Below are positions 29,790 through 60,062 of a stretch of DNA of 64,000 bases, piece after piece. Every line of letters starts with the position of its first letter. Position 1 is the first letter of the stretch. The notes beneath the pieces were generated by a model, which made no database searches, was not told the origin of the DNA, and was given only the letters and a program-made list of their open reading frames with translations. Position numbers and translations under genes: made by a program. The stretch comes from a virus: the IMG/VR virus record IMGVR_UViG_3300040815_002027; one strand, given 5' to 3'.

Positions 29790-30341
29790 ATGGAGTTACC
29801 TAAGTTAGTAAAACCTAGACCCACTAAAAAGAAGATACTTCTATTATCAGATGACTTAAGACTACATTCTGGTGTAGGTACTATGAGTCGAGAGTTTGTT
29901 TTAGGCACTGCTGAACAATTTGATTGGTTTCAGTTAGGTGCAGCTATAAAACATCCTGACCAAGGTAAGATAATTGATGTATCTGAAGATGTTAATAAAG
30001 AGTTAGGCATCGACCATGCAGACGTTAAAGTAATGCCTTGGTCTGGATATGGAGACCCGCAAATACTAAGATATTTGTTAGAGACTGTAAAACCAGATGC
30101 TATACTTCATTTTACTGATCCAAGATTTTGGCAGTGGTTATATCACATGGAACATGAGATTAGACAGCAATGTCCTATAGTATATTATGCTATATGGGAT
30201 GATACTCCGTTCCCTAATTACAATTGGTTATCTTACGCATCTTGTGACATGATATTGGGGATTAGTAAGCAATCCCACAATATTCATAATAATGTTTTAA
30301 GAAACAATAACCAAAAAGTAATAGACTTAGATGAACAATAG
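29790..30341 (+). CDS. GT-B (GT4-like) glycosyltransferase, N-terminal half
   Basis: KKKILLLSDD...SGV, KPDAI..F.DP, IWD. Confidence 0.7.
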   Translation: MELPKLVKPRPTKKKILLLSDDLRLHSGVGTMSREFVLGTAEQFDWFQLGAAIKHPDQGKIIDVSEDVNKELGIDHADVKVMPWSGYGDPQILRYLLETVKPDAILHFTDPRFWQWLYHMEHEIRQQCPIVYYAIWDDTPFPNYNWLSYASCDMILGISKQSHNIHNNVLRNNNQKVIDLDEQ

Positions 30342-31260
30342 AACTATTTACACAGCCTATGTCCCACATGGTATAAACGAAAATGCTTTTAGGCCTATCG
30401 TAGAAGGGGACAAAGATTACGAAGATTTTATTAAGTTTAAGAATGAGTTCCTTTCTAAACATGATTTGAACTTTATTGTATTCTGGAATAATAGGAACAT
30501 AAGAAGAAAGCAGCCTGGAGACGTTATCTTATCTTTCAGGCACTTTACAAACACTCTGAGTGAGGAACAGGCAAAGCATGTCGGTCTGTTTATGCACACT
30601 CAGGTCTCTGATGAGAATGGAACTAATTTAAAAGCAGTTAAAGAAGCAGTCTGCCCTGACTGTAATATTATTTTTTCTGATGCAAAGATTTCCTCTAAAG
30701 AGTTAAACTTTTTTTATAACCTATCAGATGTTACTTTAAATATAGCATCGAATGAAGGGTTCGGTTTAAGTGGGGCTGAGTCTATTATGGCAGGGACTCC
30801 TATCATAAATAATGTTACAGGAGGACTACAAGACCAGTGTAGGTTTGAGGACAGTGAAGGTAACTGGATAAACTTTGATTCTACTATAACTTCTAATCAT
30901 ACAGGACACTATACAAATCACGGGACTTGGGTAAAGCCTGTGTACCCTAGCAACAGATCTTTGCAAGGTTCTGTACCTACTCCTTATATATTTGATGATA
31001 GATGTAAGTTTGAGGATGTGTCAAAAGCTATAGGGTATTGGTATTATATAAAACCTGAAAAAAGAAAACAGCTAGGCCTTGAAGGAAGAAAGTGGGCGGT
31101 AAGTGAAGAATCTGGTATGTCATCTAAAGAGATGTGTAATAGATTTGTAAAACATATTAATTTTTTATTAGAGAACTGGACTCCTACTGAGAACTTTACG
31201 GTTACTAAGGTAGATAAATTTGAGAGTTCTTTTTCAGAAAATATAGGTATAACTTGGTAA
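30331..31260 (+). CDS. GT-B (GT4-like) glycosyltransferase, C-terminal half
   Basis: YVPHGI, NRNIRRK, SNEGFGLS..ES..AGTP.I. Confidence 0.8.
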   Translation: MNNRTIYTAYVPHGINENAFRPIVEGDKDYEDFIKFKNEFLSKHDLNFIVFWNNRNIRRKQPGDVILSFRHFTNTLSEEQAKHVGLFMHTQVSDENGTNLKAVKEAVCPDCNIIFSDAKISSKELNFFYNLSDVTLNIASNEGFGLSGAESIMAGTPIINNVTGGLQDQCRFEDSEGNWINFDSTITSNHTGHYTNHGTWVKPVYPSNRSLQGSVPTPYIFDDRCKFEDVSKAIGYWYYIKPEKRKQLGLEGRKWAVSEESGMSSKEMCNRFVKHINFLLENWTPTENFTVTKVDKFESSFSENIGITW

Positions 31261-31262
31261 AT

Positions 31263-32534
31263 ATGAGTAAGAGAGTTTTATTGTACGCACCTGTTAAGAC
31301 AAGGTCTGGTTACGGAGACCACGCTAGAGACATTGCAAGATGTATTATATCCTATTCAGATTATGATTTAGAAATATTTCCTACTAATTGGGGAAATACT
31401 TCTTGGAATGGTTTAGACACTACTACTGAAGTTGGTAGAGCTATTGAGTCTCGTATTACTAAAAGACCTACACCCAATCCTGATATCTTTATACAATTGA
31501 CTATACCTAATGAGTTTTCTAGATTAGGTAAGTATAATATAGGTATGACAGCTGGTATAGAGACTGATCTATGTAAGCCAGAATGGATTGAGGGAGCTAA
31601 TAATATGGATATGCTTATAGGAGTCAGTGAACACTCTGTATCTGTTTTAAAGAACTCGAAATACGATAAACAAGATAAGACTACTAATCAGATAATAGGG
31701 TCAGTAGCCTTAAAAGAAAGTCTTAGAACGGAAGTTCTTTTTGAAGGTATAGACACTGATATATTTAAAAAGACTTCTAAAATAGACCAGGAAGTAAAAG
31801 ATAAGCTATCTTCTATAAAAGAAGATTTTTGTTTTTTATTCGTAGGACATTGGTTAGAAGGGGATTTAGGCCAAGATAGAAAAGATGTCGGGATGCTAGT
31901 AAAAACTTTCTGTGAAGCTTTTAAAAATAAACCTTCTAGAACAAGACCTGCTCTTATATTAAAAACTAGCGGATCTGGATTCTCAGTTAGCGATAGGTAC
32001 GAAATAAATAAAAAAATACAAGCTATAAGAGATACTGTAGATAACTGTCCGTCTGTGTATCTGATTCATGGACAGTTATCAGACCAACAAATGAATGGTT
32101 TGTATAACCATCATAAAGTAAAAGCGATGGTTAGTTTTACTAAAGGTGAAGGATTTGGTAGACCTTTATTGGAGTTTACAGCTACTGGTAAGCCTGTTAT
32201 TGCTTCTGGATGGTCAGGACAAATGGATTTCTTAGACAGTAATATGTCCTACTTACTTCCAGGAGATTTAACTCAAGTACACAAGTCTGTAGTCAATAAG
32301 TGGTTTATGCAAGAGGCACGATGGTTTACTGTTAACTATGCCTATGCTATTAAAATATTACAGTCTATAGAAAAGAATTACTCTGAGGTTTTAAAGAGGT
32401 CTGAAGAACAGAGAAAGCACACGCTATCTAACTTTACTTTTGATAAAATGTCAAGTAAACTGCATCATATACTTGACAGTATTCCTGTTACTAAAGAAGT
32501 TCCTTTAACACTTCCTAAATTAAAAAAGATATAA
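31263..32534 (+). CDS. GT4-like glycosyltransferase
   Basis: SGYG.H.R, DRK, GEGFGRPLLEF..TGKPVI. Confidence 0.85.
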   Translation: MSKRVLLYAPVKTRSGYGDHARDIARCIISYSDYDLEIFPTNWGNTSWNGLDTTTEVGRAIESRITKRPTPNPDIFIQLTIPNEFSRLGKYNIGMTAGIETDLCKPEWIEGANNMDMLIGVSEHSVSVLKNSKYDKQDKTTNQIIGSVALKESLRTEVLFEGIDTDIFKKTSKIDQEVKDKLSSIKEDFCFLFVGHWLEGDLGQDRKDVGMLVKTFCEAFKNKPSRTRPALILKTSGSGFSVSDRYEINKKIQAIRDTVDNCPSVYLIHGQLSDQQMNGLYNHHKVKAMVSFTKGEGFGRPLLEFTATGKPVIASGWSGQMDFLDSNMSYLLPGDLTQVHKSVVNKWFMQEARWFTVNYAYAIKILQSIEKNYSEVLKRSEEQRKHTLSNFTFDKMSSKLHHILDSIPVTKEVPLTLPKLKKI

Positions 32535-33011
32535 ATGGAAAATAGATTTACTTTTGATGAAATATCTCCTATAACTAATAATTTATGTGTTCTAGTAGAT
32601 AAGGATTCGTCTACTGGATTATGGTCAAAACTATGTACAGAGTCTGGTTATACTACTAACTCTTTTTTAGTAGAAGGCTCAAAGACTTTAGAAGAGTTAA
32701 AGGAAAAGATACCTAAGTTTGTGTACGAATTAATCAAATATGATAAAGGGTATGCCTGGGTATTATCTATGAACTCTACTAGTAAGGCTAGTATGTTCCC
32801 TATATTAGACACGAACACTTCAGATTATAAATGGCAAGTAGTTCCTTTTAAGATGCTTAATGAGGAGGAGTCTAAAAACTATCCTAATCCAGATAAGCCA
32901 GGAGAGTTTTACAATACTGTAGTCGATTTTGAGAATGCTTCTACTTTTGATAAAGATAAGTTTCTGGAAGCTTTTGATCAGTTTATGTTAATATCTAAAG
33001 AAGATGAGTAG
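32535..33011 (+). CDS. Hypothetical protein
   Basis: ORF inside the glycosylation cluster. Confidence 0.6.
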   Translation: MENRFTFDEISPITNNLCVLVDKDSSTGLWSKLCTESGYTTNSFLVEGSKTLEELKEKIPKFVYELIKYDKGYAWVLSMNSTSKASMFPILDTNTSDYKWQVVPFKMLNEEESKNYPNPDKPGEFYNTVVDFENASTFDKDKFLEAFDQFMLISKEDE

Positions 33012-33768
33012 TACTATAAGTTTCCTAGTTACAGTTTGTGACGAGTTTAGGGAGTTAGATCGACTACTAAAGCAGCTTTCTACTGGAAAAAGTGCGGGAG
33101 ATGAAATAGTAGTAGTCTACGATTCTAATAAAGTAACAGACGATGTAAAAGAAATTCTTGTTAATTTTGATAATAAGATAGATAAGTATTCCTATCTTCC
33201 TTTTGACTTTAAAGGAAACTTTTCAGATTATAAGAACTTCGGAAATAGTTTATGTAAGAATGATTGGATATTCCAAATAGATGCAGACGAGTACCTGTCC
33301 TTACACTTATATACTAATCTTCACAATATTATAAATGTAAATGAGCCTTCTAATATAGATCTTATAGCTATACCTAGAGTTAATATAGTTAAAGGTATAA
33401 CACAAAAGCATATAGACTCTTGGGGATGGTTTATAGGTAGAGACGAGAACTACGCAGACTCAGATGAGTACGATACTTCTTCAGAGTCTTATAAGTTTCT
33501 TAAGGATAACGGCTTTATAATATCTGAGCATAATCACGCTGATAATATTAATGTAGTTAGGTATTACTGTCCTATAATAAACTATCCTGACTATCAGACT
33601 AGACTTTACAAGAATAAAGAAGGGATAAAATGGGATGGCAAACTTCATGAAAGAGTTGTAGGCTCTAACAACTTTGCCAGAATACCTGTAGATAATGATT
33701 TAGATATACTTCACTTTAAAGATATAGATAGACAAGAAAGGCAGAATAATTACTATAATACATTATAA
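33004..33768 (+). CDS. GT2 glycosyltransferase
   Basis: F...KN, WIFQIDADE, PDYQ.RL, W.GKLHE. Confidence 0.85.
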   Translation: MSSTISFLVTVCDEFRELDRLLKQLSTGKSAGDEIVVVYDSNKVTDDVKEILVNFDNKIDKYSYLPFDFKGNFSDYKNFGNSLCKNDWIFQIDADEYLSLHLYTNLHNIINVNEPSNIDLIAIPRVNIVKGITQKHIDSWGWFIGRDENYADSDEYDTSSESYKFLKDNGFIISEHNHADNINVVRYYCPIINYPDYQTRLYKNKEGIKWDGKLHERVVGSNNFARIPVDNDLDILHFKDIDRQERQNNYYNTL

Positions 33769-33769
33769 T

Positions 33770-34627
33770 ATGGTTTTTTGGAGAACTTTTGGTAATGCTT
33801 TACATCCTATTAAACATGTGGATAAGTTAGGATTTTCTATAAAAGATCCATTTTATATACCAAATTTTTATTTAGAAGAGCAGTATTTTATTGTATTAAG
33901 GACCTGTATGGGAGTTGGGGATTGGGGCATTATTTCTGCAATGCCTAGAAAGCTCAAAGAAAAATATCCTAATTGTAAAGTTTTTATTCCTAATAAGGAT
34001 CTTCTTTCTCATCTATTTGTACACTTAAAAGATAATTGGGATTCTTGGGATAACCCTTTTAACGTATCTGAAGTAGTCTTTAAGAATAATCCATACGTTG
34101 ACGACTTTATAGATTACTTTTCTGAAGAGGTATTTAATGACCATTATAGAATTTATACTGAAGAAGAGGAGCCTTTACTAAAGCAGATTCTTAGGTTCTG
34201 GCAGTTTCGAGAAGATGAGATGCAAGATTTAGATCCAGAGATTTACTGGACAGACGAAGAAAAAAGTTTGGGGGATGCTATAATAAACCAACACACTGGA
34301 ACTAATGACTTCTTTACAGTATTAATATCTAATAGGTATAAGGAAGAGGAGCTGCCTATAATACAAAATAAGATAAATGAGTTAAACACATTTAACTATC
34401 CTGCTTATTACTGGTTTTCTAATCCTAATATTAATTTAAACTTTAAAAAAGCTTTAGATTTAAGGCATGTGGATATAAGAGTACAGATGTATATAAAGTC
34501 TAAAGCTAAGTTTAACATAGGAAATCAAACAGGAGTACACGATACTATAGCACGTTACGCTCCTACCTATACTATTCCTAGAGGTGATCTAGGTTCCAAT
34601 ATTATAAATTCTCAAATATATTTTTAA
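33770..34627 (+). CDS. Putative GT9-like glycosyltransferase
   Basis: G.GD.....PR.LKEKYP, F.NNPYVD, IG..TG.. Confidence 0.55.
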   Translation: MVFWRTFGNALHPIKHVDKLGFSIKDPFYIPNFYLEEQYFIVLRTCMGVGDWGIISAMPRKLKEKYPNCKVFIPNKDLLSHLFVHLKDNWDSWDNPFNVSEVVFKNNPYVDDFIDYFSEEVFNDHYRIYTEEEEPLLKQILRFWQFREDEMQDLDPEIYWTDEEKSLGDAIINQHTGTNDFFTVLISNRYKEEELPIIQNKINELNTFNYPAYYWFSNPNINLNFKKALDLRHVDIRVQMYIKSKAKFNIGNQTGVHDTIARYAPTYTIPRGDLGSNIINSQIYF

Positions 34628-35211
34628 TGTACAATCCTAAAACTATCTTGGATACTATTCCAGATAAATTTGATTCAAAGACGACTACTTCTAAGAGATT
34701 TAAGACAGACTTGTATAACTTTATAGTGAAGAATGGTGTCAAAAGCATATTAGAGATAGGATCTTCAGTAGGGCATACAGCTTATTTTTTAGGTCACTTT
34801 GTAGATACGTTTTCTTGTGTGGAGCTTGATAGGTCTAGAGTTGATAGAATAAATAAGTTATGTGAAAACTTAGATAGTGTCGTATGTTATAGAAAAGATG
34901 TTTATAGAGATGCTTGGGGTTTTAAGTATCATGATATGATTATAATAGACTGTGTTCATTATTATAAGCATGTTAAAAGTGATATAGAGAATGCTCTTAA
35001 ACTTAAGCCTATCTACTTAGTTTTTGACGATTATGGTTTAATACCAGAAGTTAAAAGAGCAGTAGATGAGTATGTTGACAGATCTATTTTACAGGTAGAG
35101 TTAAAAGTAGGTCATCCTATGTCTACAGAGTTCTATATGTGTAAGTCAGAAAATATTACTAAAGATAAAAGGTTAGCAGACTCTGAGGGTATAATATGTA
35201 AAGTATTATGA
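34627..35211 (+). CDS. Class I SAM-dependent methyltransferase
   Basis: ILEIGS..G, IID..H.Y..V..D, VFDDY. Confidence 0.8.
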   Translation: MYNPKTILDTIPDKFDSKTTTSKRFKTDLYNFIVKNGVKSILEIGSSVGHTAYFLGHFVDTFSCVELDRSRVDRINKLCENLDSVVCYRKDVYRDAWGFKYHDMIIIDCVHYYKHVKSDIENALKLKPIYLVFDDYGLIPEVKRAVDEYVDRSILQVELKVGHPMSTEFYMCKSENITKDKRLADSEGIICKVL

Positions 35212-35912
35212 AAGTAGCTATATATACGTCCATATTCGGAAATTACGACAATTTAATAGAAGATCAATTACAGTTAGATGGCGTTGATTATATTTGTTTT
35301 ACTGATGCTGATATTAAATCAAGAACTTGGAGAGTAGTCAAATCTTTGCCTATATATAATGATGCTAATAGGAATGCAAAAAAGTATAAGGTACTTCCTC
35401 ATAGGTACTTAAAAGACTATCAGTATAGTATATGGATAGACGGTAACATAAAAGTTGTCGGAGATGTAAGAGAACTGATAGATGATTCTTTACATAAAGT
35501 CTTCGATCATAATCAAACTATCCTAGATGCTAGAAACTGTTTATACGAGGAAGCTAACGCTATACTACAGAAAGGGCAAGAGAATATGAGAATAACTCCT
35601 CATAGAGGTAAGTTAAACTATAAAGATAATCCTAAATTAATAACACAACAAGTATCCAGGTACTTAAAAGAAGGGTATCCTAGCAATAACGGTCTTGCTA
35701 CTAATCCTATAATATTAAGGCGGCATAAAGAAAAGGAGGTGGTTGATGTTATGGAAAGTTGGTGGGAAGAAATAAAGTACAATTCTAAGAGAGATCAGTT
35801 AAGTTTTGATTATATATGTTGGAAGAAGAATTTTAAGTATTCTTTATTATTAGGAGATTCTAGAGATAATGAATTTTTTAAATCTATGGGTAAACATACA
35901 GGTAAAAAGTAA
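35208..35912 (+). CDS. DUF616-like (TOD1/MUCI70) glycosyltransferase
   Basis: YTSIFGNYD, YICFTD, K.LPH, SIWIDG, SKRDQLSF. Confidence 0.8.
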   Translation: MKVAIYTSIFGNYDNLIEDQLQLDGVDYICFTDADIKSRTWRVVKSLPIYNDANRNAKKYKVLPHRYLKDYQYSIWIDGNIKVVGDVRELIDDSLHKVFDHNQTILDARNCLYEEANAILQKGQENMRITPHRGKLNYKDNPKLITQQVSRYLKEGYPSNNGLATNPIILRRHKEKEVVDVMESWWEEIKYNSKRDQLSFDYICWKKNFKYSLLLGDSRDNEFFKSMGKHTGKK

Positions 35913-35915
35913 ACA

Positions 35916-36521
35916 ATGAAGATATACGAATACAAAGATTACGATCACTATAGAGATTCTCAAATAGAAGCAAATAAGAAAAAGATAAAAAATTCTTATG
36001 TAGATAAGAACTCTATAAAATATTTAATAGATTATTATAGTAATAGGTTTGGTAGGAGAGCTAATAAGATTCTTTGTCATGGTACAAGGAGAGGTTTAGA
36101 GCAGGAATACTTTAAGAAGTTTTTAGGTAAAGATATAGATATACTTGGTACAGAGATAAGCGACAATGCTAAAGATTACCCCAACACTATTCAATGGGAT
36201 TTCCATAAGTCACAAGAATCTTGGCGTTCCTATTATGACATAGTATATTCTAATTCTTTTGACCATTCTTATAAACCAGCAGAATGTTTAGATGAGTGGA
36301 TGTCTTGTATCAATTCTGAAGGTATTTGTATTATAGAGTATAGTCCAATATGTGATACAATTCTCAATAAGGTAGATTGTTTTTCTGGATCTTTACAGGA
36401 TTACAAAGAACTTATAGGAACTAAATATAATTTTGACATACTTACTAATGATGGCATCAAAGATGACGGATTAACTTGGAGAGGTCTTAGGTATTTTTTT
36501 ATAATCACAAATAAGTTATGA
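35916..36521 (+). CDS. Putative SAM-dependent methyltransferase
   Basis: ILCHGTR.G.E, G.EI, DIVYSNSFDH. Confidence 0.6.
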   Translation: MKIYEYKDYDHYRDSQIEANKKKIKNSYVDKNSIKYLIDYYSNRFGRRANKILCHGTRRGLEQEYFKKFLGKDIDILGTEISDNAKDYPNTIQWDFHKSQESWRSYYDIVYSNSFDHSYKPAECLDEWMSCINSEGICIIEYSPICDTILNKVDCFSGSLQDYKELIGTKYNFDILTNDGIKDDGLTWRGLRYFFIITNKL

Positions 36522-37282
36522 GTAAAAATATAATATTTATACCAGCTATTGATGCGGGGAGAAATAGACATAATGCTTATAAGTATAGCATACAGTCATG
36601 GAAAAATTGGGCAGATAAGAATAATTCTGAAGTTATTGTGTGGGAAAATGCTTTATATCCTTGGAGCGAAATGACTATACCTTGGCAGAGATATTATCTA
36701 TTTGATATGCTTGAGAATAATAAAATAGATTATGATCAAGTTCTGATGGTAGACTCTGATACTATAGTACACCCAGATACGCCTAACTTTTTTGAATATA
36801 CAACAGATTATAGTGCAGTTATGGATTGTGGATGTTGGGAATGGACAGGTAGAAGTATAAGGCATTATGCCAATTTATTTGATAATTTTAAGTTGGAAAG
36901 AGGTTATTATTTTAATGGAGGATTTCAAATAGTAAATGAATCTAATAAGGAGTTCTTTAAACTTGTTTTAGAATTTTATAAGACCAATAAGAGTATCTTA
37001 CTAGAAAAACAGAAAGCTGGATTGGGTACTGATCAAACTTGCGTTAACTATTTAACGCAGATGTCTGGGGTTAAAGTTGAAATTCTTCCAGCTACTTTTA
37101 ATTTGCATAGTCTATCCTTAAAGAATCTAATAAATTTAGGTCAACCCTGGCCTGCTGATAGTTTAGAGAATCTTTATGAGCAAGGATGGGTATATCACTT
37201 TAACTCTATACCTAAAAACTCTTTAAATAGGAATACTGATTATTTTTTGGAAAGAGCATATAGAGAGCTTTGGTCTAAATAA
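36518..37282 (+). CDS. GT-A glycosyltransferase (GT8-like)
   Basis: VDSD, YFNGG, DQT..NY, YHF. Confidence 0.75.
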   Translation: MSKNIIFIPAIDAGRNRHNAYKYSIQSWKNWADKNNSEVIVWENALYPWSEMTIPWQRYYLFDMLENNKIDYDQVLMVDSDTIVHPDTPNFFEYTTDYSAVMDCGCWEWTGRSIRHYANLFDNFKLERGYYFNGGFQIVNESNKEFFKLVLEFYKTNKSILLEKQKAGLGTDQTCVNYLTQMSGVKVEILPATFNLHSLSLKNLINLGQPWPADSLENLYEQGWVYHFNSIPKNSLNRNTDYFLERAYRELWSK

Positions 37283-37293
37283 AATTTACAAAT

Positions 37294-38271
37294 ATGAGAA
37301 TAGCATGGTTTTCTGAAGCAGGGTTTAACAGTTCTAATACACCAAGGGACTTTCCTAATATGCGTACAGAGTATGCTTGGTATGTTGCTCAAAATGCACA
37401 CCATTATAATATAGCTACTTTACCAGAACTTAAAGACAATAGTTTTGATTTAGGTATTATAATCATACCAAAAAAACTAGCTGCTTATGCTAATATTGAT
37501 ATTATCGGGAATCTAAGGAGAACTTGTAAAAAGTATGCCTTTATGCAAGAAGGTGCTTCTTGGTATTTCCAAGAATTACACATAGGAGAAACTTTTCTTT
37601 ACTATGACATTATGGTAAATGCAGATTTCTTTTTAGCACATAACATAAAAGATTTAATGTATTATCAGTCTCTCTTGGAGAAAAAAGGATACATTAACCC
37701 TACCCTAATGATAGAGGATTCTATAAAAGACATATCTAATGTAGAAAGGGAGGGGGTTATTATAGGAGGTAATATCGGACATTACTATGGAGGATTCAAT
37801 TCTTTAGTTGTAGGTTTGCATATTGCGGATAAAGTGTATGCTCCTCAAATGGGTAGGATGAAGCCTGAAGAACGTAGTATAACTCAAATAGAGCATCTTC
37901 CTTACACGGAATGGGTTGAGTGGGTACATAACCTTAATAAGTTTAAATATGCCGTTCATATGAACCCTAACACTATTGCAGGAACTTTTAATCTTAACTG
38001 TGCTTATTTAGGAATACCTTGTATTGGGAATATAGATGCTGATACTCAAAGAATGTGTTTTCCTGAACTTTCGATGGATGCAGAAGATATTATAGGTGCT
38101 AAGATGCTTTTAGAAAAGTTGCGAGATGACAAAGATTTCTATCAAGAAATATCTGAAACTGCTAAAGATAATTACAAGAGATATTTTTCGGAAGAAGCGT
38201 ACAAAGTAAATTGGAATAATATTTTAAAACAACAATTCGATTATGAAGATTTCCCTAATACAGCCAAGTAG
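37294..38271 (+). CDS. Putative GT-B glycosyltransferase
   Basis: AGTF.L.CAYLGIPCIG, L..D..FY C-terminal pattern. Confidence 0.55.
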   Translation: MRIAWFSEAGFNSSNTPRDFPNMRTEYAWYVAQNAHHYNIATLPELKDNSFDLGIIIIPKKLAAYANIDIIGNLRRTCKKYAFMQEGASWYFQELHIGETFLYYDIMVNADFFLAHNIKDLMYYQSLLEKKGYINPTLMIEDSIKDISNVEREGVIIGGNIGHYYGGFNSLVVGLHIADKVYAPQMGRMKPEERSITQIEHLPYTEWVEWVHNLNKFKYAVHMNPNTIAGTFNLNCAYLGIPCIGNIDADTQRMCFPELSMDAEDIIGAKMLLEKLRDDKDFYQEISETAKDNYKRYFSEEAYKVNWNNILKQQFDYEDFPNTAK

Positions 38272-39451
38272 GAATAATTTAAAATATTTAAAGTGGTCTT
38301 ATAATGCTATAAGAAAGAACCAAGGCAAACATGATGTTCAGATTTGTGTGGCAGATGATGCATCTACAGATGGAACTTGGGAGTGGTGTATGCAAATAAT
38401 GCACACAGACTCTAACTTCAATGCGATACGAAACGAAGGACCTAAGAGATTAGGACATACTATTTTGTATGATAAATTGATCAAAGAGGTAGCAATTCAC
38501 GATATTTGTATGATATATCACGCAGACATGTACCTTGCTCCAGGTGCATTAGATGCAATAGAAAGTTATATTAAAGAAAAAACTATTGTTTCCTTAACAA
38601 GAGTAGAGCCTCCTTTACACCCAGATGGGCCAGAAAAGGTTCTTGTTGATTTTGGAACAGAACCTGAAGACTTCAATGAAAATATGTTTCTAGATTGGCT
38701 GTCTAATAAGTATACTCCTAAATCTGACAAAGGTTTTACCTTTGGAGTTTTTGCTCCTTGGGCATTTTACAAGAAAGATTTTTTAGAGATTGGAGGTCAT
38801 GATCCATTATATGCTCCACAGTCCAAAGAAGATTCAGATATCTTTAATAGATTTAAACTTAATAATGTAAAATTTATACAGACTTGGAGAGGAGTCGTAT
38901 ACCACATGACTTGTAGAGGTTCTAGATTTAATCCTACTATAACACAGGTAGGTACAGCTTCTGATGAATGGATGAGGCAGAATATAAAGAGTTCAAGAAA
39001 CTTTATTAGAAAGTGGGGACATTTTGTAAAGCATGATGAATATATGATGCCTATTGTTCCTTCTAAATATATGGTAGTTATAAAACTTATTAACTGTACA
39101 AGTATAAAATTACTATCTGCTTTAGAACCTTGGTGTTCAAAAATATTTACAGATTTCTCTGACTGGGAATCTTATGTTAAATCTGAACAAATTAATACTT
39201 CTTTTGATATGTCTAAAAGAGTATATCCTATAAATAGTATGATTCCTCAATCTGTAAAAGGACTTTTTCTTACAGTAGATGCTCATAATTTTTCTGATGA
39301 AGATTTTTTAGGCATACAAGAACTTTCTATGATAATTGATAATGCTAAAAAAGATTCTAATGATTTAGAAGGACAGATTTTTTCTTTAGGTAATATTAAA
39401 GTATATGTAAATGATTTAACTACTTATGAAAATTTATTAATAAAACTATAG
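38243..39451 (+). CDS. GT2 glycosyltransferase
   Basis: ADDASTDGT, HADM, IGG.D..Y....EDSD, YH. Confidence 0.85.
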   Translation: MKISLIQPSRNNLKYLKWSYNAIRKNQGKHDVQICVADDASTDGTWEWCMQIMHTDSNFNAIRNEGPKRLGHTILYDKLIKEVAIHDICMIYHADMYLAPGALDAIESYIKEKTIVSLTRVEPPLHPDGPEKVLVDFGTEPEDFNENMFLDWLSNKYTPKSDKGFTFGVFAPWAFYKKDFLEIGGHDPLYAPQSKEDSDIFNRFKLNNVKFIQTWRGVVYHMTCRGSRFNPTITQVGTASDEWMRQNIKSSRNFIRKWGHFVKHDEYMMPIVPSKYMVVIKLINCTSIKLLSALEPWCSKIFTDFSDWESYVKSEQINTSFDMSKRVYPINSMIPQSVKGLFLTVDAHNFSDEDFLGIQELSMIIDNAKKDSNDLEGQIFSLGNIKVYVNDLTTYENLLIKL

Positions 39452-42209: not shown

Positions 42210-42593
42210 ATGAAACTTAAATTATTACTAGAACAACTTACCGAAGAGAGAGTAAATATATTAGAGGAGTTTGTAGACTACTGTACAAAAGAACTTAAAA
42301 TACAGAGACCTACTATGAAGTTAGTAAACTCTCAAAATTTTGCGAAGAAGTACAGAACCTTTGGACAATACTCCCCACAGGATAATACTTTAAAAGTATA
42401 TGTTTATAATAGAAACTTAGCTGATATACTTAGAACTATAGCACATGAATTAGTACACCATAAGCAGATGGGTAAAGGACAATTAGTCCCTGGAGCTGGA
42501 GAGACTGGTTCTCCCCAGGAAAATGAGGCCAATTCTTTGGCTGGAGTCTTACTAAGACATTACGGTAAAATTAATCCAAATATTTACGAATAA
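42210..42593 (+). CDS. HExxH zincin-like protein
   Basis: LRTIAHELVHHKQ, E.EAN. Confidence 0.7.
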   Translation: MKLKLLLEQLTEERVNILEEFVDYCTKELKIQRPTMKLVNSQNFAKKYRTFGQYSPQDNTLKVYVYNRNLADILRTIAHELVHHKQMGKGQLVPGAGETGSPQENEANSLAGVLLRHYGKINPNIYE

Positions 42594-44565: not shown

Positions 44566-45432
44566 ATGAGTTTAAAGAAAATAGTAAAAGAAGCCTTACA
44601 GGATAAGGATCTTTTTAAGAAGAATCTTTCTAAGATACAGTCTACTACTATAGATGCCAATGAGATGCCTAAAGGTATCACATCGTTCCCTAATGAGTTT
44701 AGGTTGGTTTTTGTCGATGCTCATTTAGCATTATTAAAACACTTTAAGAAAAAATATAAACTAAGAGGAGAGAAAGCTAGAGTGGAGAACTTAATGGATC
44801 AGTTAGGGGCGGAGAAACATGTTAGAATAAGCAGTTTGTATCCTCCATTTAAGATACTAAGAAAATCTGTACTTAACGCAAAGGGAGAGAACCAAGGTAG
44901 ACTTGCCAGAGTATTTCAGTACAAAAATAAGTTTATACCTTTAGATAGAGAGGACTTTCATATTATGGCTATAGATGCTATAGAGAATGATAAGTTATTA
45001 GGACCTTGTTCTGTTGTCGATTTATCTGATAGTACCAGAGAAGATATTGGGAATCCTTTGGGTGATATGACCAGGATGGAAAGAGTCTACCAGTTCTTGG
45101 AGATACCTAAAGAAGACGAAGTAAAAGATGAGCCAGACTTATACGATAAGGAAGGAGGAAAGTTGACTAAAAAACAGATAGACTTATTTAATAGACCTGG
45201 GGATGATGCTAGTGTAGATATAGGCTTTAAGAATCCTATCGACACTACAGCAAGCATACAAGGTTTAGACGATCTTGATAACTACGCTCATAAAGTAAGA
45301 GCTACTCTATTAATGATAAACAGAGCTAAGGCTACTCTAAAGAGAACTAAAGATCCTAAAAAGAAACGTAATATTATATCTAGTTTGAAGAAATGGCAAA
45401 ACTATAAAAATAGACTAATAGATAAACAATGA
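44566..45432 (+). CDS. Hypothetical protein (putative late/virion)
   Basis: ATG 44566 after TATTTATA; MSLKKIVKEAL leader. Confidence 0.6.
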   Translation: MSLKKIVKEALQDKDLFKKNLSKIQSTTIDANEMPKGITSFPNEFRLVFVDAHLALLKHFKKKYKLRGEKARVENLMDQLGAEKHVRISSLYPPFKILRKSVLNAKGENQGRLARVFQYKNKFIPLDREDFHIMAIDAIENDKLLGPCSVVDLSDSTREDIGNPLGDMTRMERVYQFLEIPKEDEVKDEPDLYDKEGGKLTKKQIDLFNRPGDDASVDIGFKNPIDTTASIQGLDDLDNYAHKVRATLLMINRAKATLKRTKDPKKKRNIISSLKKWQNYKNRLIDKQ

Positions 45433-50946: not shown

Positions 50947-52004
50947 ATGTCACAAATTGGATTTGGATCTAACAACGGAGTTGGGAGAAAATTAATTACA
51001 TTGAACATTAAAGACTTGCCCCCTCTTTTTGAACTAAAGGAGAAGGTGGACGATTCCTGGCAAACTACGGATAAGACTAACGAGATCGCTGGTTATTTGC
51101 AAAACGTACAAGTTTTAACCAAAACTAGTGATAAGTATGGAGATAAAAAGCAGGTAGTTTTAGATATGGATTTAGGAGATTTTCTTGCACGAGTTAGAGT
51201 TAACTTAAACTCTGTAGGTAAAGAGATTCTTAACAGAATGTCAAATTCTGATGACCTAAAAGGTTCTGTTTTAAAGATGAGAGTTTATGTTGATAAGAAG
51301 AACTATCCTAGTATTGTATGTTATAAGGATGATGAGATTATGCAATGGGGACTTACTACTGATCAAGTTAAATTAAATTTTGCACAAGAAGGTTTTTGGG
51401 TTTCTTTATATGAAACTAAAATTAGACCTCAATTTGATTCTACGGTAGTAACTGAAGAAGCTACTAGTGATTTAGATGACTTTATGAAAAATGTTAAACT
51501 GTGACAATAGGCAAAGCTTTTGAATCTCAAATTAAGAATAATTTGCCAGCAACAGAGCAAGGTATTAGGGTTTTAATTAACCCTATATACCACTCTGGTA
51601 GAAAGATAAATGCTGGCGATATTGCTTTATGGGCTAAATTAAGAGAAGAAGATGGCTCTACGACTATAGTACTTATACATCCAGATGATATAAAGATGTA
51701 CTCTTTAGATAGAAAAGTTAAAAAAGTAGATCCAGACCTTCCTTGCATTGTTCTGAAAAATAAAAAATAAGTTATGTTATATTCAATATACGCAAGTCTT
51801 TGCGGTAAAGTGTATCTAGAGGAGTATACGGACCACGTTAAAGCGTACTCCAGATACTCGCAGTTATCTTATAAATTAGAAAAACTATCAAAAAATAAGT
51901 TAGAGATTAGTGATCTCTCTCACGAACTTTCTGAGAATTTAGACAAGCACTGTACGTCTTCTTTAGGTTTTGTTCACTGTGAGAAATTTGAGGGAGATTT
52001 ATGA
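50947..52004 (+). CDS. Three hypothetical ORFs (50947-51504, 51501-51770, 51774-52004)
   Basis: + strand ORFs downstream of a TTTG-N20-TATATTTG promoter. Confidence 0.55.
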
Positions 52005-52717
52005 AAACAGTAGTTCTTGGAGATATACACGGTTTAGGTGTATGGGAGTTAATAGTAGCTAAAGAATCTCCTGATAGAGTTATTTTCTTAGGGGACTATT
52101 TCGACTCTACAGAAGTAAGTACTTCTCAGCAAATAAATAACTACAATAAAATAGTAGAGTTTAAAAAAAGTGGCGGAGCAGACATAATAATGCTAGTAGG
52201 AAATCACGACTTTCATTATCTTCCTTACATAGACACAGACGATATAAGTGGTTTTCAGAGTCACAGTGAAGATGTGTTAAAGGAACTTGTAGGAAGTACT
52301 TTAAACAATCTTACAATGTGCTATAAACAAGGTAACTACTTATTCACACATGCAGGAGTTTCAGATAATTTCTTACTAAAAGCACAAATAAATTATAGTA
52401 GAGACACAATAGATTCTTCTATTAATACTTTATTTTTGAGTAATCCTCATATATTTGATTTTGATGAAGATTGTGAAGATGCTTCTGGAGATAATAAGGA
52501 GCAGTCCTGTATATGGATACGTCCTAGAAGTCTTATGAATAATTCTCATACTATAAAAAAAGACTATATTCAAATTGTAGGGCATACTACACAAAAGAGA
52601 GTAGATGTAAAAGGAGTAGCTACAGATGGGAGGTTCTATTTTTTAGATACTTTAAGAACTTCTGGACAGTACGGTATTATTGAGTTTAACAATATTACTT
52701 TTAACTCGTATAAATAA
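52001..52717 (+). CDS. Calcineurin-like metallophosphoesterase
   Basis: GDIHG, GDYFD, GNHD, THAG, GHT. Confidence 0.92.
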   Translation: MKTVVLGDIHGLGVWELIVAKESPDRVIFLGDYFDSTEVSTSQQINNYNKIVEFKKSGGADIIMLVGNHDFHYLPYIDTDDISGFQSHSEDVLKELVGSTLNNLTMCYKQGNYLFTHAGVSDNFLLKAQINYSRDTIDSSINTLFLSNPHIFDFDEDCEDASGDNKEQSCIWIRPRSLMNNSHTIKKDYIQIVGHTTQKRVDVKGVATDGRFYFLDTLRTSGQYGIIEFNNITFNSYK

Positions 52718-52723
52718 TAGGTT

Positions 52724-54010
52724 ATGAACTACTATAAGATAAAAAGAAAACAAGTAAAGCGTGATGCTGAAGAATCTTATTACTACGGCACTTCTATAGT
52801 ATATAGGATGTATCCTAATAAGAAGCAGGAGGAGTGGTTAACTGAGATAGGCAACAAATGTCGGGGAGCTTATAACAAACTGGTAGAAGAGTTCTGCCAA
52901 AATCCAGATAAACCCAGGAACTTACCTGGAACTTCTTTAAAGGAGATTAATAGGCTTAGACATTATTTAAAAGAGTTTGACTGGTTAGATGATGTTCCTT
53001 CTATATTTTTGTATAATGTTTGTAATAATTTTATTAAAGGAGTTGATAACTTTTATACTCAAATTAAAAAGAATAAAAAGATATTAGAGAAAGATCCTTA
53101 TGCTACAGTTAGAAAAACAAGTCCCCCTAAAAAGAAAAAGTCTTATAGAGACCTGCATTTTGGGTCTAATAACTCAACTATAGAAAGAAGCACTGCTATT
53201 GACTATGACAACAATAGATATTATTGTTTTACGAAAACATTAAAAAGATTAGGTATTAGTGATTCTTTTAAGATAAAATGTCACAAGAAGTTTTATAATA
53301 GCAAAATAAAAAGAGTTTCTTTTATGAGGGACAGTTCTATGTGTTGGTATGTGTCTTTTGGTTTGGAGCTTCCGCAAATAGATAGGTATGATAAAATTTA
53401 TGTACCTAAAGATAATAGTTTAGGTATAGACTTGGGTGTAAAAACCGCAGCTACTACTTCTGATGGGGTAAAATTTCACCCTCCAGTAGAGCAGATAAAA
53501 AAGTTGGAGAAGAAGATAGATGTTTTAAATAAAGTTATTAGCAGGAAACAAAGATTAGATAAAAAGAATTACTGGAAGAGTAATAACTATAGTAGGGTGT
53601 TGGAGAAGAAGTACAGAATACAGAAAAAGATAAATAACATAAGAGCTAATTATAACGAGTATGTATCTCATGTTCTTACCAAAGGAGAGTATAATAAGAT
53701 TCAGATGGAAGATCTTAAGTTAAATTTTATGGTAGAAAAAAGGAAGAAGAAGTTTGGTATGAGTAGATCGGCAACTCGTTTAGGTTTGGGAAGTTTAACT
53801 AATAAGATAAAATCTAAATCTCAGGTAAGAGGTATAGAGTTTAATAAAATAAATCCTGCAAACACAACTAAGTATTGTAGTAATTGTGGACATATAGAGA
53901 ACAGTTTAACTCTTAATACAAGAGAGTGGACGTGTCCTAGATGTGGTGTTGACCACGATAGAGATATAAATGCTGCAAAAAATATTCAAAAAAGTTTGGA
54001 TATTAGATAA
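52724..54010 (+). CDS. tnpB: CRISPR-associated TnpB/Cas12f-like RuvC nuclease (428 aa)
   Basis: YRMYPNKKQ..CR..YN (OrfB HTH), RuvC-I GIDLGVK, RuvC-II MEDL, CSNC/CPRC Zn finger, RuvC-III DRDINAAKNI; array starts 240 nt downstream. Confidence 0.92.
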   Translation: MNYYKIKRKQVKRDAEESYYYGTSIVYRMYPNKKQEEWLTEIGNKCRGAYNKLVEEFCQNPDKPRNLPGTSLKEINRLRHYLKEFDWLDDVPSIFLYNVCNNFIKGVDNFYTQIKKNKKILEKDPYATVRKTSPPKKKKSYRDLHFGSNNSTIERSTAIDYDNNRYYCFTKTLKRLGISDSFKIKCHKKFYNSKIKRVSFMRDSSMCWYVSFGLELPQIDRYDKIYVPKDNSLGIDLGVKTAATTSDGVKFHPPVEQIKKLEKKIDVLNKVISRKQRLDKKNYWKSNNYSRVLEKKYRIQKKINNIRANYNEYVSHVLTKGEYNKIQMEDLKLNFMVEKRKKKFGMSRSATRLGLGSLTNKIKSKSQVRGIEFNKINPANTTKYCSNCGHIENSLTLNTREWTCPRCGVDHDRDINAAKNIQKSLDIR

Positions 54011-54026
54011 AAGGTTTGTAGATTTA
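53995..54026 (+). promoter_or_regulatory. Putative Bacteroidota-type promoter for guide RNA and array
   Basis: TTTG(53995)-N20-TAGATTTA(54019), one mismatch to TAnnTTTG. Confidence 0.5.
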
Positions 54027-54049
54027 CGATCTAAGTAAGTTCATTGAAA

Positions 54050-54250
54050 TAATCGCCCGTGTGTAGCGGGTTTAAAGGCTTGCAGATATAGCGTCAACCC
54101 CTTCTTTGCTACGCAAGTGGTAAAGTCGCTCAAAATCTTTCTTTAAAATGAAAGCGAGAGGCCGAGAGGACGCTAGGCGGCTAATGTCGAAAGACATAAC
54201 GTGTGAGAACACACGAAATATCTTTTAAATTGTAGCCTTTGTATAGTTAG
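54050..54250 (+). ncRNA. omegaRNA-like / tracrRNA-like scaffold with 3' anti-repeat
   Basis: Locally GC-enriched; stems TAGCGTC/GACGCTA, ATGTC-GAAA-GACAT, CGTGTG-AGAA-CACACG, AAAGGCT/AGCCTTT; 54216-54235 complementary to the repeat. Confidence 0.75.
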
Positions 54251-54921
54251 GGTGTATACCACCACAATTTGAAAGGTGTTTACAACTAATGTTAGACAAA
54301 AAAATAAGTATAGCTTGGTATATAGCACCACAGTTTGAAAGGTATTTACAACGGAAACTTAGGTTACCTACTATCTGCTGAAGGTGTATACCACCACAGT
54401 TTGAAAGGTATTTACAACGAAAACTTAGGTTACCTACTATCTGCTGAAGGTGTATACCACCACATTTTGAAAGGTATTTACAACCAAATGAAGAACGATG
54501 CACAATAAGATGTAGGTGTATAGCACCACAATTTGAAAGGTGTTTACAACAGATCTAAAAGAAGAAGCAGAAAAACTTTCAGTGTATACCACCACAATTT
54601 GAAAGGTATTTACAACTAGTACCTATAGTATCAAAGTTAAATCAGAGGTGTATACCACCACAGTTTGAAAGGTATTTACAACTTATGTTATGAAGGTAGT
54701 ACTCCTTATATTGGTGTATACCACCACAATTTGAAAGGTATTTACAAACGGTGTCTCTTTAGCATCATAATTTTAAAACTGTTTACAACATAGCGACATC
54801 AATGTCGTTACCATAGATGGCTGTATACCACCACAATTTTAAAACTGTTTACAACATAGCGACATCAATGTCGTTACCATAGATGGCTGTATACCACCAC
54901 AATTTTAAAACTGTTTACAAC
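54251..54921 (+). CRISPR. CRISPR array: 11 repeats of 36 nt (GGTGTATACCACCACAATTTGAAAGGTATTTACAAC), nine 30-nt spacers (7 distinct) and one collapsed spacer
   Basis: Repeats start at 54251, 54317, 54383, 54449, 54515, 54581, 54647, 54713, 54754 (degenerate), 54820, 54886; 66-nt period except R8-R9. Confidence 0.97.
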
Positions 54922-57705: not shown

Positions 57706-58248
57706 ATGAAAGATTCGAGAAAGCTTTTAGCAACCATTGCAAAGGGATATTTGAGTGAAGAATTAAATCATAATATAGATGGGATAATAGCATATCATAG
57801 AAGCCCCAAAAAATTTTATGATTTTAAATTGTCAAATGTTAGTTCTGACAGTAATAGACAGAGATATGGGTGGGGGTTATATTTTTCAAACAGTATTCCA
57901 AATACGCAATATGGTGATTATTTATATCAAGTAAGTCTTTTTAAAAATAAGAAACAGTATGTTTTAATTGATTTAAAACAACCAGTTGAAGGACTTATAG
58001 TTAATAGGATTGTAGAAGCACTTAATCATTATAACAAAAAATCTGATGAAGTTGTTGAGTTTGCTTATAATGGATTTTTGTTTTATAAAACGTTATCAAG
58101 AATTTTAGGTGGTGATAAAAACGCATCTTTGTTTTTATCTAAAAATGGTATAGATGGGTTACTAAATAAAATAACTAAAAATTGGCACGATTATATATTA
58201 TTCAATGACGATAATATAATAATTGATGAGATTAAATATGACCCATAA
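57706..58248 (+). CDS. Putative ADP-ribosyltransferase-fold protein
   Basis: AYH.S...F..F, YG.GLYFS, YG..LY.V, GIDG pattern of ART-PolyVal-like domains. Confidence 0.55.
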   Translation: MKDSRKLLATIAKGYLSEELNHNIDGIIAYHRSPKKFYDFKLSNVSSDSNRQRYGWGLYFSNSIPNTQYGDYLYQVSLFKNKKQYVLIDLKQPVEGLIVNRIVEALNHYNKKSDEVVEFAYNGFLFYKTLSRILGGDKNASLFLSKNGIDGLLNKITKNWHDYILFNDDNIIIDEIKYDP

Positions 58249-58376
58249 AAATAAAACAAAAAGAATGTTACGATGAAAATTAATACGAAGATGAAACGTA
58301 GCATTGCATATAACTGTTTGTTAATCCAATATGCTTCTGGCTATGTTTTGCAACTATTTATTAATAAAGTAAAGGT

Positions 58377-58871
58377 ATGAAAGATTCGAGAAAGCTTTTA
58401 GTAACCATTGCAAGAGGGTATTTAAATGAAAATATTGAAGATTATTCAAAATGGAAACGTAAAAATGTAACTTTGCGTGGAATGAAAGAATTAGGTAAAG
58501 CAAATGAAGTATATGGTTCTTTTGGAAAAGGATTATATACAGTACCTTTAAGTAATAAAGCAATGGCAAAACAATATGGTAAAATATATTTTGTTGTAAA
58601 TGGGATACCAAGAAAACCAAAAATTGTTGATTCATTAAATAATGCTGAATTGTTAAGACAAAAATTAATTAATGATTTTTGTAAAAAACATAACGAAGAT
58701 TATAGTCCTCGTTTTTTTGAATCAAATACAACTATGGAAGATGAAATGTTAAAGTTGGGTTATGATGGTCTTATAATAAAAGGTAGAGAGATGGTTAACT
58801 ACACCCCAAAGGATATTAAATATTTTAAAAATGAAAATGATTTACAACGTTACTATGAAGCACTTTCATAG
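58377..58871 (+). CDS. Putative ART-fold protein sharing its N-terminal leader with 57706
   Basis: MKDSRKLL.TIA.GYL.E leader; LRG, FG.GLY, A.QYG..Y, GYDG.II...E.V.Y. Confidence 0.5.
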   Translation: MKDSRKLLVTIARGYLNENIEDYSKWKRKNVTLRGMKELGKANEVYGSFGKGLYTVPLSNKAMAKQYGKIYFVVNGIPRKPKIVDSLNNAELLRQKLINDFCKKHNEDYSPRFFESNTTMEDEMLKLGYDGLIIKGREMVNYTPKDIKYFKNENDLQRYYEALS

Positions 58872-59567: not shown

Positions 59568-60062
59568 ATGAAACTTACAAAACTTTTAGAGACAGTTAGG
59601 GAAGATTTCGTAAATGAAGATATTAACCGTGATAAGTCAAGGAAAGTGTTGTTTGTTGATGGACACGGGAAACAAATTGTTTACGATGATGGTGCTTTTA
59701 GGATTGCTGTTGATGATAAAGATGATGCACTATATGTAACTTTATGGCATAAAGAAGATGTGAAAGGTAAAGAGTATTGGGTTAAACGTGGGTACATAGA
59801 TGCTTGGAAGAGTAAAATGAACTTTAAAGATAGAAGTGGTACTTATTTATCTATTCGTTCAATAGAAATTGAGAATAAATATAGAAATAAGGGGTACGGC
59901 ACAAAGTTATACAAAGCTCTATTTGATTTTTCAGCAAATGATGTTAAAGGTGTTTATTCTTACTTACCAAATAGGGTTAATAAAAAACAAGTGCCTAAAA
60001 TATATAATAAATTAGGTGCTATTACTGATGGTGATTACCAATTTATTGAGTTTAGTAATTAG
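59568..60062 (+). CDS. GNAT acetyltransferase
   Basis: YRNKGYGTKLY acetyl-CoA motif, Y.KLG. Confidence 0.75.
   Translation: MKLTKLLETVREDFVNEDINRDKSRKVLFVDGHGKQIVYDDGAFRIAVDDKDDALYVTLWHKEDVKGKEYWVKRGYIDAWKSKMNFKDRSGTYLSIRSIEIENKYRNKGYGTKLYKALFDFSANDVKGVYSYLPNRVNKKQVPKIYNKLGAITDGDYQFIEFSN

Follow-up and report, generated by a model that had tools for sequence, protein, structure and literature searches.

A tnpB-like gene in phage DNA

The analysed stretch of viral DNA, 64,000 nucleotides long and hereafter called the window, contains genes for a tail sheath, a head-tail adaptor, UvsX, a DnaB-like helicase, ribonucleotide reductase and DNA polymerase, and is part of a large AT-rich myovirus. 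This phage is found in estuary and marine metagenomes, and the promoter motif and repeat family described below point to Bacteroidota as its host. On the plus strand, a metallophosphoesterase gene (52001..52717; 238 aa, PF00149) forms the phage flank of a tnpB-like nuclease gene (52724..54010; 428 aa), recognized as an open reading frame with domain and profile matches, which starts 6 nt downstream and is followed by an RNA scaffold and a repeat-spacer array. Elsewhere in the window, unrelated open reading frames (57706-58871, 59568-60062, 42210-42593 and 44566-45432) have a common short N-terminal leader, nearly identical over 18 codons between those at 57706 and 58377, and the N-termini of a cluster of about ten genes (29790-39451) resemble glycosyltransferases and methyltransferases.

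The nuclease consists of an N-terminal extension of ~22 residues, HTH/REC, WED and RuvC domains and a C4 zinc finger, without a C-terminal tail, and ends 7 residues past the TNB domain. Pfam search revealed HTH_OrfB_IS605 (residues 26-55), OrfB_IS605 (229-338) and Cas12f1-like_TNB (357-421), and the NCBIfam model guided_TnpB scores 194.5 bits against a cut-off of 100, which together with the RuvC D-E-D triad and the TNB zinc finger places the protein in the TnpB superfamily. The intact RuvC triad and zinc finger with which an earlier note on this DNA had credited the 428-aa protein are confirmed: over 14 aligned homologues, D236, E329 and D414 of the RuvC domain and C385, C388, C404 and C407 of the C4 finger are invariant. 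The nearest solved structures, by both sequence and fold, are the TnpBs of ISDra2 and ISFba1; the AlphaFold model of the phage protein (pTM 0.50) is weak in the RuvC lobe and backs only the general fold. None of the named Cas12 profiles reaches its own cut-off with this protein, and the family profile of its own clade gives more than 620 bits, compared to at most 118 for any Cas12f model.

Homology search recovered 13 clusters at 40-95% identity, followed by a drop to generic TnpB at ~30%, and an exhaustive profile search turned up no more than two 50% clusters (639 and 591 bits) plus the outlier P0122 (223 bits). In a tree of 110 proteins, built by a quick method, 15 members occupy one branch (SH-aLRT 99), with P0122, of locus L096, as sister (SH-aLRT 98). 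The clade is nested among ordinary TnpBs; the Bacteroidota dCas12f and the phage Cas12f-like protein, the only kinds of Cas12f in the tree, lie far off on long branches. Of the phylogeny envisaged in the earlier note, the placement relative to TnpB and Cas12f is thereby given, but the tree holds no named Cas12n or TranC rows. The clade comprises ~17 proteins of 397-428 aa, and every context seen is phage-like. No member was found in 401 Bacteroidota genomes (best score 143 bits), and the lineage matched no named family among those tested.

Scaffold and array are kept at all 11 distinct loci with downstream DNA (the window, L002, L003, L013, L014, L016, L176-L179 and L096; five clusters lacking downstream DNA stand outside the count), compared to an array beside 1 of 153 other TnpB loci, unrelated to that of the clade. 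A candidate array at L126 was rejected as a coding repeat. On a neighbouring branch, a phage TnpB with a canonical omegaRNA (L022:38-1700) has an unrelated 3-repeat array ~330 nt downstream, possibly another TnpB-array association. A homologue of 59% identity has the same phosphoesterase neighbour and 3.9 kb of synteny, which at this protein identity indicates that the gene has long been stationary; other clade members sit in differing gene contexts, so the cassette has also moved among phage lineages.

These data bear on whether the locus is an ordinary IS200/IS605 element lying beside an orphan array by chance, as might be supposed from the fact that such TnpBs are its best match by sequence and structure, and from the different contexts of its relatives. 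However, an IS left end could not fit into the 6-nt upstream gap, and no transposase-sized open reading frame adjoins tnpB in the window. The complete 309-kb relative G003, the one genome for which the absence of cas1 and tnpA is established, carries a single tnpB copy and neither cas1 nor a Y1 transposase. Given also the synteny, the array counts and the covarying anti-repeat described below, an IS element was rejected; the conserved association refutes a chance neighbourhood, to which we assign next to no probability. A search for the empty site via the phosphoesterase recovered no relative. The view of the earlier note, that this is a domesticated TnpB directly behind a phosphoesterase gene, with no tnpA or IS ends at the locus and no adaptation genes, is thus upheld by the synteny, by G003 and by the conserved scaffold and array, and homologues do keep arrays, one of the points on which that note had staked its reading.

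Scaffold RNA, putative promoter and array

The structured region 3' of tnpB spans ~250 nt (fold z = -3.2) and contains a plus-strand omegaRNA/tracr-like scaffold (54032..54235), delimited by fold, covariation and conservation, with its 5' end placed from the promoter. It presents a conserved 5' motif (54038-54050), hairpin H1 (54055-54071), a long-range stem (54077-54080/54179-54182) that encloses a variable arm, a further hairpin (54184-54197), hairpin H5 (54200-54215) and, adjoining H5, the anti-repeat (54216..54233); a 15-nt linker (54236..54250) connects the scaffold to repeat 1 as a natural single-guide junction. In the 11-locus alignment, 96% of the cells are paired and 11 of 20 pairs are compensatory (0/500 shuffles), with slid controls at 35-53%; these counts are inflated by the relatedness of the loci, and many of the changes recur on separate branches. 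H5 pairs 6/6 in every locus, via six different stems. Its loop can pair with the 5' motif in 11/11 loci, in columns that barely vary, and may form an as yet unproven pseudoknot. The covariance model of the scaffold matches clade loci only, with no match in the other TnpB loci searched, and Rfam search gave chance matches only.

The anti-repeat pairs with the repeat over 18 contiguous base pairs at -17.8 kcal/mol, compared to -5.6 ± 2.0 kcal/mol for shuffles (0/2000). Since a few other 22-mers of the window score equally, the case for the anti-repeat rests on position and conservation, not on energy. In all loci, base pairs form between its initial 7 nt and the 7 nt ahead of the terminal ACAAC of the repeat, and in several relatives the pairing comprises just 7 bp, a length that would be weak for binding in trans. 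The core of the anti-repeat pairs likewise with the internal repeats of 9/9 loci, with which it co-varies, position 3 being A-U, C-G, U-A or U-G. The structured RNA with an anti-repeat that the earlier note had read downstream of the gene is thus well supported by fold, pairing and covariation. In its features, scaffold plus anti-repeat, the RNA could act as a tracrRNA.

It had further been taken for a split-off tracrRNA. Instead, the DNA and one RNA contig alike show the scaffold fused in cis to repeat 1, in the manner of a natural single guide that has a promoter motif of its own. Measured from the anti-repeat to where the first unit ends, the distance is 31-32 nt in L096, L014 and L179, 44-45 nt in L013, L176 and L178, 66 nt in L016 and L177, and 71-82 nt in the window, L002 and L003. 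The short forms resemble an intact omegaRNA end and the long forms contain a full repeat; the tree gives no order to these states, with short forms both in the sister and within the clade. Such a scaffold, attached in the DNA to repeat 1 through a stem whose length is graded among the loci (31-82 nt) and not split off there, appears to be new here.

A Bacteroidota primary-sigma promoter-like site (53995..54026, plus strand) overlaps the last tnpB codons, with TTTG at 53995-53998 and, after 20 nt, a -7 box at 54019-54026. The motif, with exactly this spacing and the -7 box across the tnpB stop, is present in 12/12 loci and at 0/163 other TnpB ends; the -7 box matches at 7 of 8 positions in the window and perfectly in the other 11 loci. 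It corresponds to the Bacteroidota primary promoter consensus (PMC7366714), and its strict form occurs twice in the 64-kb window; a sigma-70 promoter scan was uninformative. The invariant Ser-Leu at the protein C-terminus is explained by the overlap of the -7 box with the end of tnpB. In ordinary TnpB systems the guide RNA is cut out of the mRNA (PMC10278001); the promoter at the tnpB end suggests that here it is made independently. Such a promoter-like motif at the end of tnpB also seems to be new.

Three RNA libraries gave contigs that overlie parts of tnpB and of the array, two of them also the scaffold; one contig spans 54066-54305, comprising scaffold, repeat 1 and spacer 1. The libraries carry three study codes, two probably from one campaign, and their contigs may contain DNA and give no strand, ends or level. 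The upstream genes (51500-52732) are uncovered in three RNA runs and spacers 1-6 in a related strain, an absence that contigs cannot prove. In two runs the contigs start at the same base, 54066, which is the start of the 3' arm of H1 and may mark a reverse-transcription stop or a processed end.

The array (54251-54921) has a period of 66 nt, composed of a 36-nt repeat and a 30-nt spacer. The 11 repeats that the earlier note had counted are present, but only eight are canonical: repeats 1-8 with spacers 1-7 occupy 54251..54748 (plus strand), whereas the degenerate distal end (54749..54921, plus strand), which is probably the old end, comprises a shortened spacer 8, a truncated R9, a duplicated spacer 9/10 and degenerate R10 and R11. 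Pairing to the anti-repeat weakens at R10-11, from about -18 kcal/mol to only -5/-6 kcal/mol. Spacers 9 and 10 are identical and spacers 2 and 3 differ at 1/30 positions, so that ~8 distinct guides are left. The common repeat variants are A-to-G changes opposite U, which carry no pairing cost and are tolerated on the plus strand only. In several loci the repeat itself forms a weak hairpin (-0.4 to -2.2 kcal/mol), as some host repeats do.

The arrays of the clade end in a half repeat that lacks the 3' half. At the array 3' ends of L003, L013, L014, L016 and L179, and of host L193 and L184, a half or degenerate repeat gives way to a poly-A stretch and a short motif common to these loci, which in the phage TnpB loci are followed by a terminator. 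A related strain has the same distal array end as the window minus one duplicate unit, and L003 carries one extra first spacer relative to L011; both comparisons fit growth beside the scaffold, and deletion would look alike. Across Lake Mendota-type samples the arrays are identical except for one spacer. A freshwater relative has a second tandem repeat of ~69-nt period upstream (L003:2032-2240).

The fusion raises the possibility that the nuclease uses a single guide only, made from the scaffold and the first unit, and that the rest of the array consists of old spacers that stay unloaded unless at position 1. This would agree with the fusion at 11/11 loci, with the closed 31-32-nt hairpins of L096, L014 and L179, and with the lack of a separate tracrRNA. 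Yet in 9/9 loci the anti-repeat pairs at least as well with internal repeats as with the first unit (better in L178 and L179), repeats 2-8 keep this pairing, and the terminal half repeat fits an array in which each spacer uses the preceding repeat. We consider single-guide use unlikely and favour multi-guide use of the array.

Repeat family, targets and selection

The repeat is not a private outcome of duplicating an omegaRNA; it belongs to a Bacteroidota-wide family. Its 3' end also occurs beside Cas13b in Bacteroidota genomes (L193, L195, L199), beside sigmaE-dCas12f (L190, L196), in phage mini-arrays and, at L185, next to a Cas12f-like phage gene; the window repeat is identical at 31/36 positions to a phage mini-array and a sigmaE-dCas12f variant and at 26/36 to Cas13b repeats. 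Its apparent membership in a family common to host Cas13b and Cas12f-type arrays is new here. The window-type repeat itself was not found in the 401 Flavobacteriaceae genomes searched. The nuclease is not descended from Cas12f, so capture is the probable origin of the repeat, a step that the resemblance between IS605 right ends (L017, L086, L113) and the repeat end may have eased. VI-B arrays without cas1 acquire spacers via II-C Cas1-Cas2 in trans (PMC8092290), and by analogy II-C Cas1-Cas2 would most likely be the spacer source of the phage array; cas1 was found in just 1 of the 5 host genomes checked that carry the repeat family.

Other loci extend this family. The stand-alone phage mini-arrays L184 (1147-1166, minus strand) and L186 (396-415, minus strand), with 29-31/36 identity to the window repeat, end in a half repeat and poly-A. 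The Parapedobacter sigmaE-dCas12f loci L190:333-2800 and L196 hold long true arrays whose repeats are nearly those of the window. Large proteins of Tenacibaculum (L200:854-4102) and Kordia (L197:1048-2988) lie beside family arrays and have no NCBIfam or Pfam match, Cas13b included. L185:11978-14036 and L188 (362-kb complete phage G004) contain a 501-aa Cas12f-like gene, a tracr-like region, no cas1, and long arrays of the same repeat family; their 5' motif after the stop codon matches that of the window scaffold.

Given these repeat identities and the stand-alone mini-arrays, the array might serve a host Cas13b or Bacteroidota Cas12f as a hijack or decoy, with TnpB and scaffold as a separate neighbour. 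Against this, scaffold and array are physically fused and the anti-repeat covaries in every locus, and the repeat hairpin is weak in several loci. Cas13b has its repeat 3' of the spacer, so the terminal half repeat of the array is of no use to it. Type VI-B was rejected for the locus itself, which shares only a repeat of that family and has no cas13b gene; no large HEPN-size open reading frame lies in the 46-62 kb part of the window. We regard an array devoted to host effectors as very improbable, although its dual use by TnpB and a host effector is conceivable.

Exact 17-20-nt spacer scans of IMG/VR returned only the arrays themselves or 19-23/30 chance matches, no significant match was obtained when the spacers were compared by BLAST with cultured phages, plasmids, five viral genomes and 401 Flavobacteriales genomes, and the window contains no self-target. 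The best lead, spacer 5 against a primase-like gene of Bacteroides phage DAC16 (27/30, E 0.02), was rejected because its three mismatches all fall at codon position 2, one of them at a Zn-site Cys. The searched data hold no credible protospacer, and hence give no PAM and no target class.

Between the window and a 95%-identical relative, 4.0% of sites differ in tnpB, 0.5% in the upstream genes and 0/270 nt in the scaffold. The pN/pS of tnpB is 0.21 overall; the REC/WED half stands at 0.30 and the RuvC half at 0.08, a borderline difference (p = 0.06). Compared with L001, tnpB has diverged eight times as much as the genes upstream of it, and its amino-acid changes cluster at residues 75-180. By alignment, several changes sit where ISDra2 reads its TAM, and may reflect PAM change or recombination.

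Is the locus a decaying or non-cutting relic, drifting after loss of function or binding DNA without cleavage? The degenerate distal repeats, duplicated spacers, promoter mismatch, lack of targets and near-identical arrays across Lake Mendota-type samples could be read in this way. The invariant catalytic triad and zinc finger, the low pN/pS of the RuvC half, the scaffold unchanged at 4% gene divergence and the RNA-library coverage argue otherwise, and a relic is in our view quite improbable.

A candidate type V-like system and its known relatives

At the sequence level, the locus combines an intact nuclease gene, a conserved scaffold, an anti-repeat, an array and a promoter motif. We propose, with a probability of roughly 0.7, that it is a domesticated, immobile TnpB acting as a minimal multi-guide type V-like (TranC-like) system of a large Bacteroidota phage. 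The host RNA polymerase would transcribe scaffold and array from the promoter at the tnpB end, and the scaffold, folded in cis with repeat 1, would give an omegaRNA-like single guide with spacer 1 attached. Internal repeats would be captured by the same anti-repeat, either in trans once the RNA has been trimmed or through looping, which would let later spacers guide too. The ribonucleoprotein would then recognize a 5' TAM/PAM and, in the manner of TnpB and Cas12f, cut double-stranded DNA that matches ~16-20 nt at the start of the spacer, and a host adaptation complex, probably type II-C Cas1-Cas2 as for VI-B arrays, would add 30-nt spacers next to the scaffold. On balance, rival phages or mobile elements are the likeliest targets, and a role in inter-phage competition is suggested by the parallel with CauTranC9 and Cas12r.

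Some 50 independent origins of Cas12 from TnpB have been inferred (PMC10691335, PMC12669027), and a TnpB-CRISPR intermediate stage is already known; what distinguishes the present variant is its promoter motif, a repeat in common with host systems and the graded set of fusions. More tentatively, at somewhat less than even odds, the clade may represent an unnamed, phage-restricted and independent TnpB-to-type-V origin, in which a right-end hairpin joined a Bacteroidota repeat, with its own promoter and host-supplied spacers, and the graded series from 31 to 71-82 nt would be snapshots of RNA splitting within one clade. If the system is functional, the step from omegaRNA to tracrRNA/crRNA becomes testable within one lineage, whose members differ mainly in the growth of the 3' stem to a full repeat, and single- and multi-guide use can be compared directly across members. 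It also suggests a route for TnpB to adaptive guides without cas1/cas2, through a repeat already extended by host machinery, with phages as hosts of such transitions. With a defined scaffold, these ~17 proteins of 397-428 aa would be cheap candidates for compact editors.

Among known systems, IS200/IS605 TnpB (ISDra2, 8H1J/8EXA; ISFba1, 8IAZ) is the best match in sequence and fold, and shares the HTH-WED-RuvC-Zn order and a structured 3' RNA ending in a hairpin before the guide. The phage locus differs in having no IS ends or transposase, a score of 138 against the IS200_TnpB cut-off of 425, an RNA wholly outside the open reading frame and behind a promoter, and guides taken from an array.

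Type V-F Cas12f, including Bacteroidota Cas12f, sigmaE-dCas12f (PMC13472631) and phage Cas12f, resembles it in size, in the tracr-plus-array layout and in the same 36-nt repeat family, and the phage Cas12f-like locus (L185/L211) has a similar 5' motif after the stop codon. However, Cas12f forms a separate, distant branch, the Cas12f2 model gives 46 against 450, and the phage TnpB has an IS605 HTH. Type V-F was rejected, as the protein neither groups with Cas12f, represented in the tree by Bacteroidota and phage-like rows only, nor passes a Cas12f profile cut-off.

Cas12n (V-N, formerly V-U4) and V-U2/C2c8 are likewise TnpB-proximal compact type V effectors without adaptation genes. Cas12n has ~485-544 aa and a tracrRNA in an unstructured coding tail (bioRxiv 2026.03.27.714800), whereas the phage protein has 428 aa, no tail and a scaffold after the stop codon; it scores 110 bits with Cas12u4 and 64 against 350 with C2c8. 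On its size and on the position of the scaffold 3' of the stop codon, type V-N was rejected.

Cas12r of Thermus Lalka phages is a 564-aa, tracrRNA-independent effector with a 29-nt type I-E-like repeat and known targets (bioRxiv 10.64898/2026.04.20.719267). Both are phage TnpB-derived effectors without adaptation genes, with a host-like repeat and spacers added next to the gene, but the present system has a smaller protein, an anti-repeat scaffold and a 36-nt repeat, and Cas12r comes from a thermophile host; on these comparisons the locus is no Cas12r. Type VI-B (Cas13b) arrays (PMC8092290) share the 36+30 geometry and the 3' end of the repeat (L193, L195, L199), whereas the phage effector is a RuvC DNase that needs its repeat 5' of the spacer.

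A close parallel is TranC, a group of transposon-CRISPR intermediates (Jin et al., Cell 2025, doi 10.1016/j.cell.2025.09.004, via PMC13565253). Its likeness to the phage locus lies in a TnpB-sized nuclease on the IS605 side, an array downstream, no cas1/cas2, and an anti-repeat between gene and array. The TnpB placement, size and fold, the conserved downstream array and the scaffold with anti-repeat give the phage locus, as far as sequence goes, the marks of a TranC-type system, from which we infer that it would work, and cleave, like TranC or a minimal type V system. TranC clade 9, with CauTranC9, was found in a tailed phage, has a mean length of 414 aa and lacks a TnpB tail (bioRxiv 10.64898/2026.03.27.714800); its repeat is 38 bp compared to 36 here, and by description, the only basis of this comparison, it may be the same clade. 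LaTranC (9JFO) matches the phage TnpB only in the C-terminal RuvC part (58 bits). Compared to TranC, the phage system is distinguished by a scaffold that in the DNA is fused to the first repeat and stands behind a promoter motif of its own.
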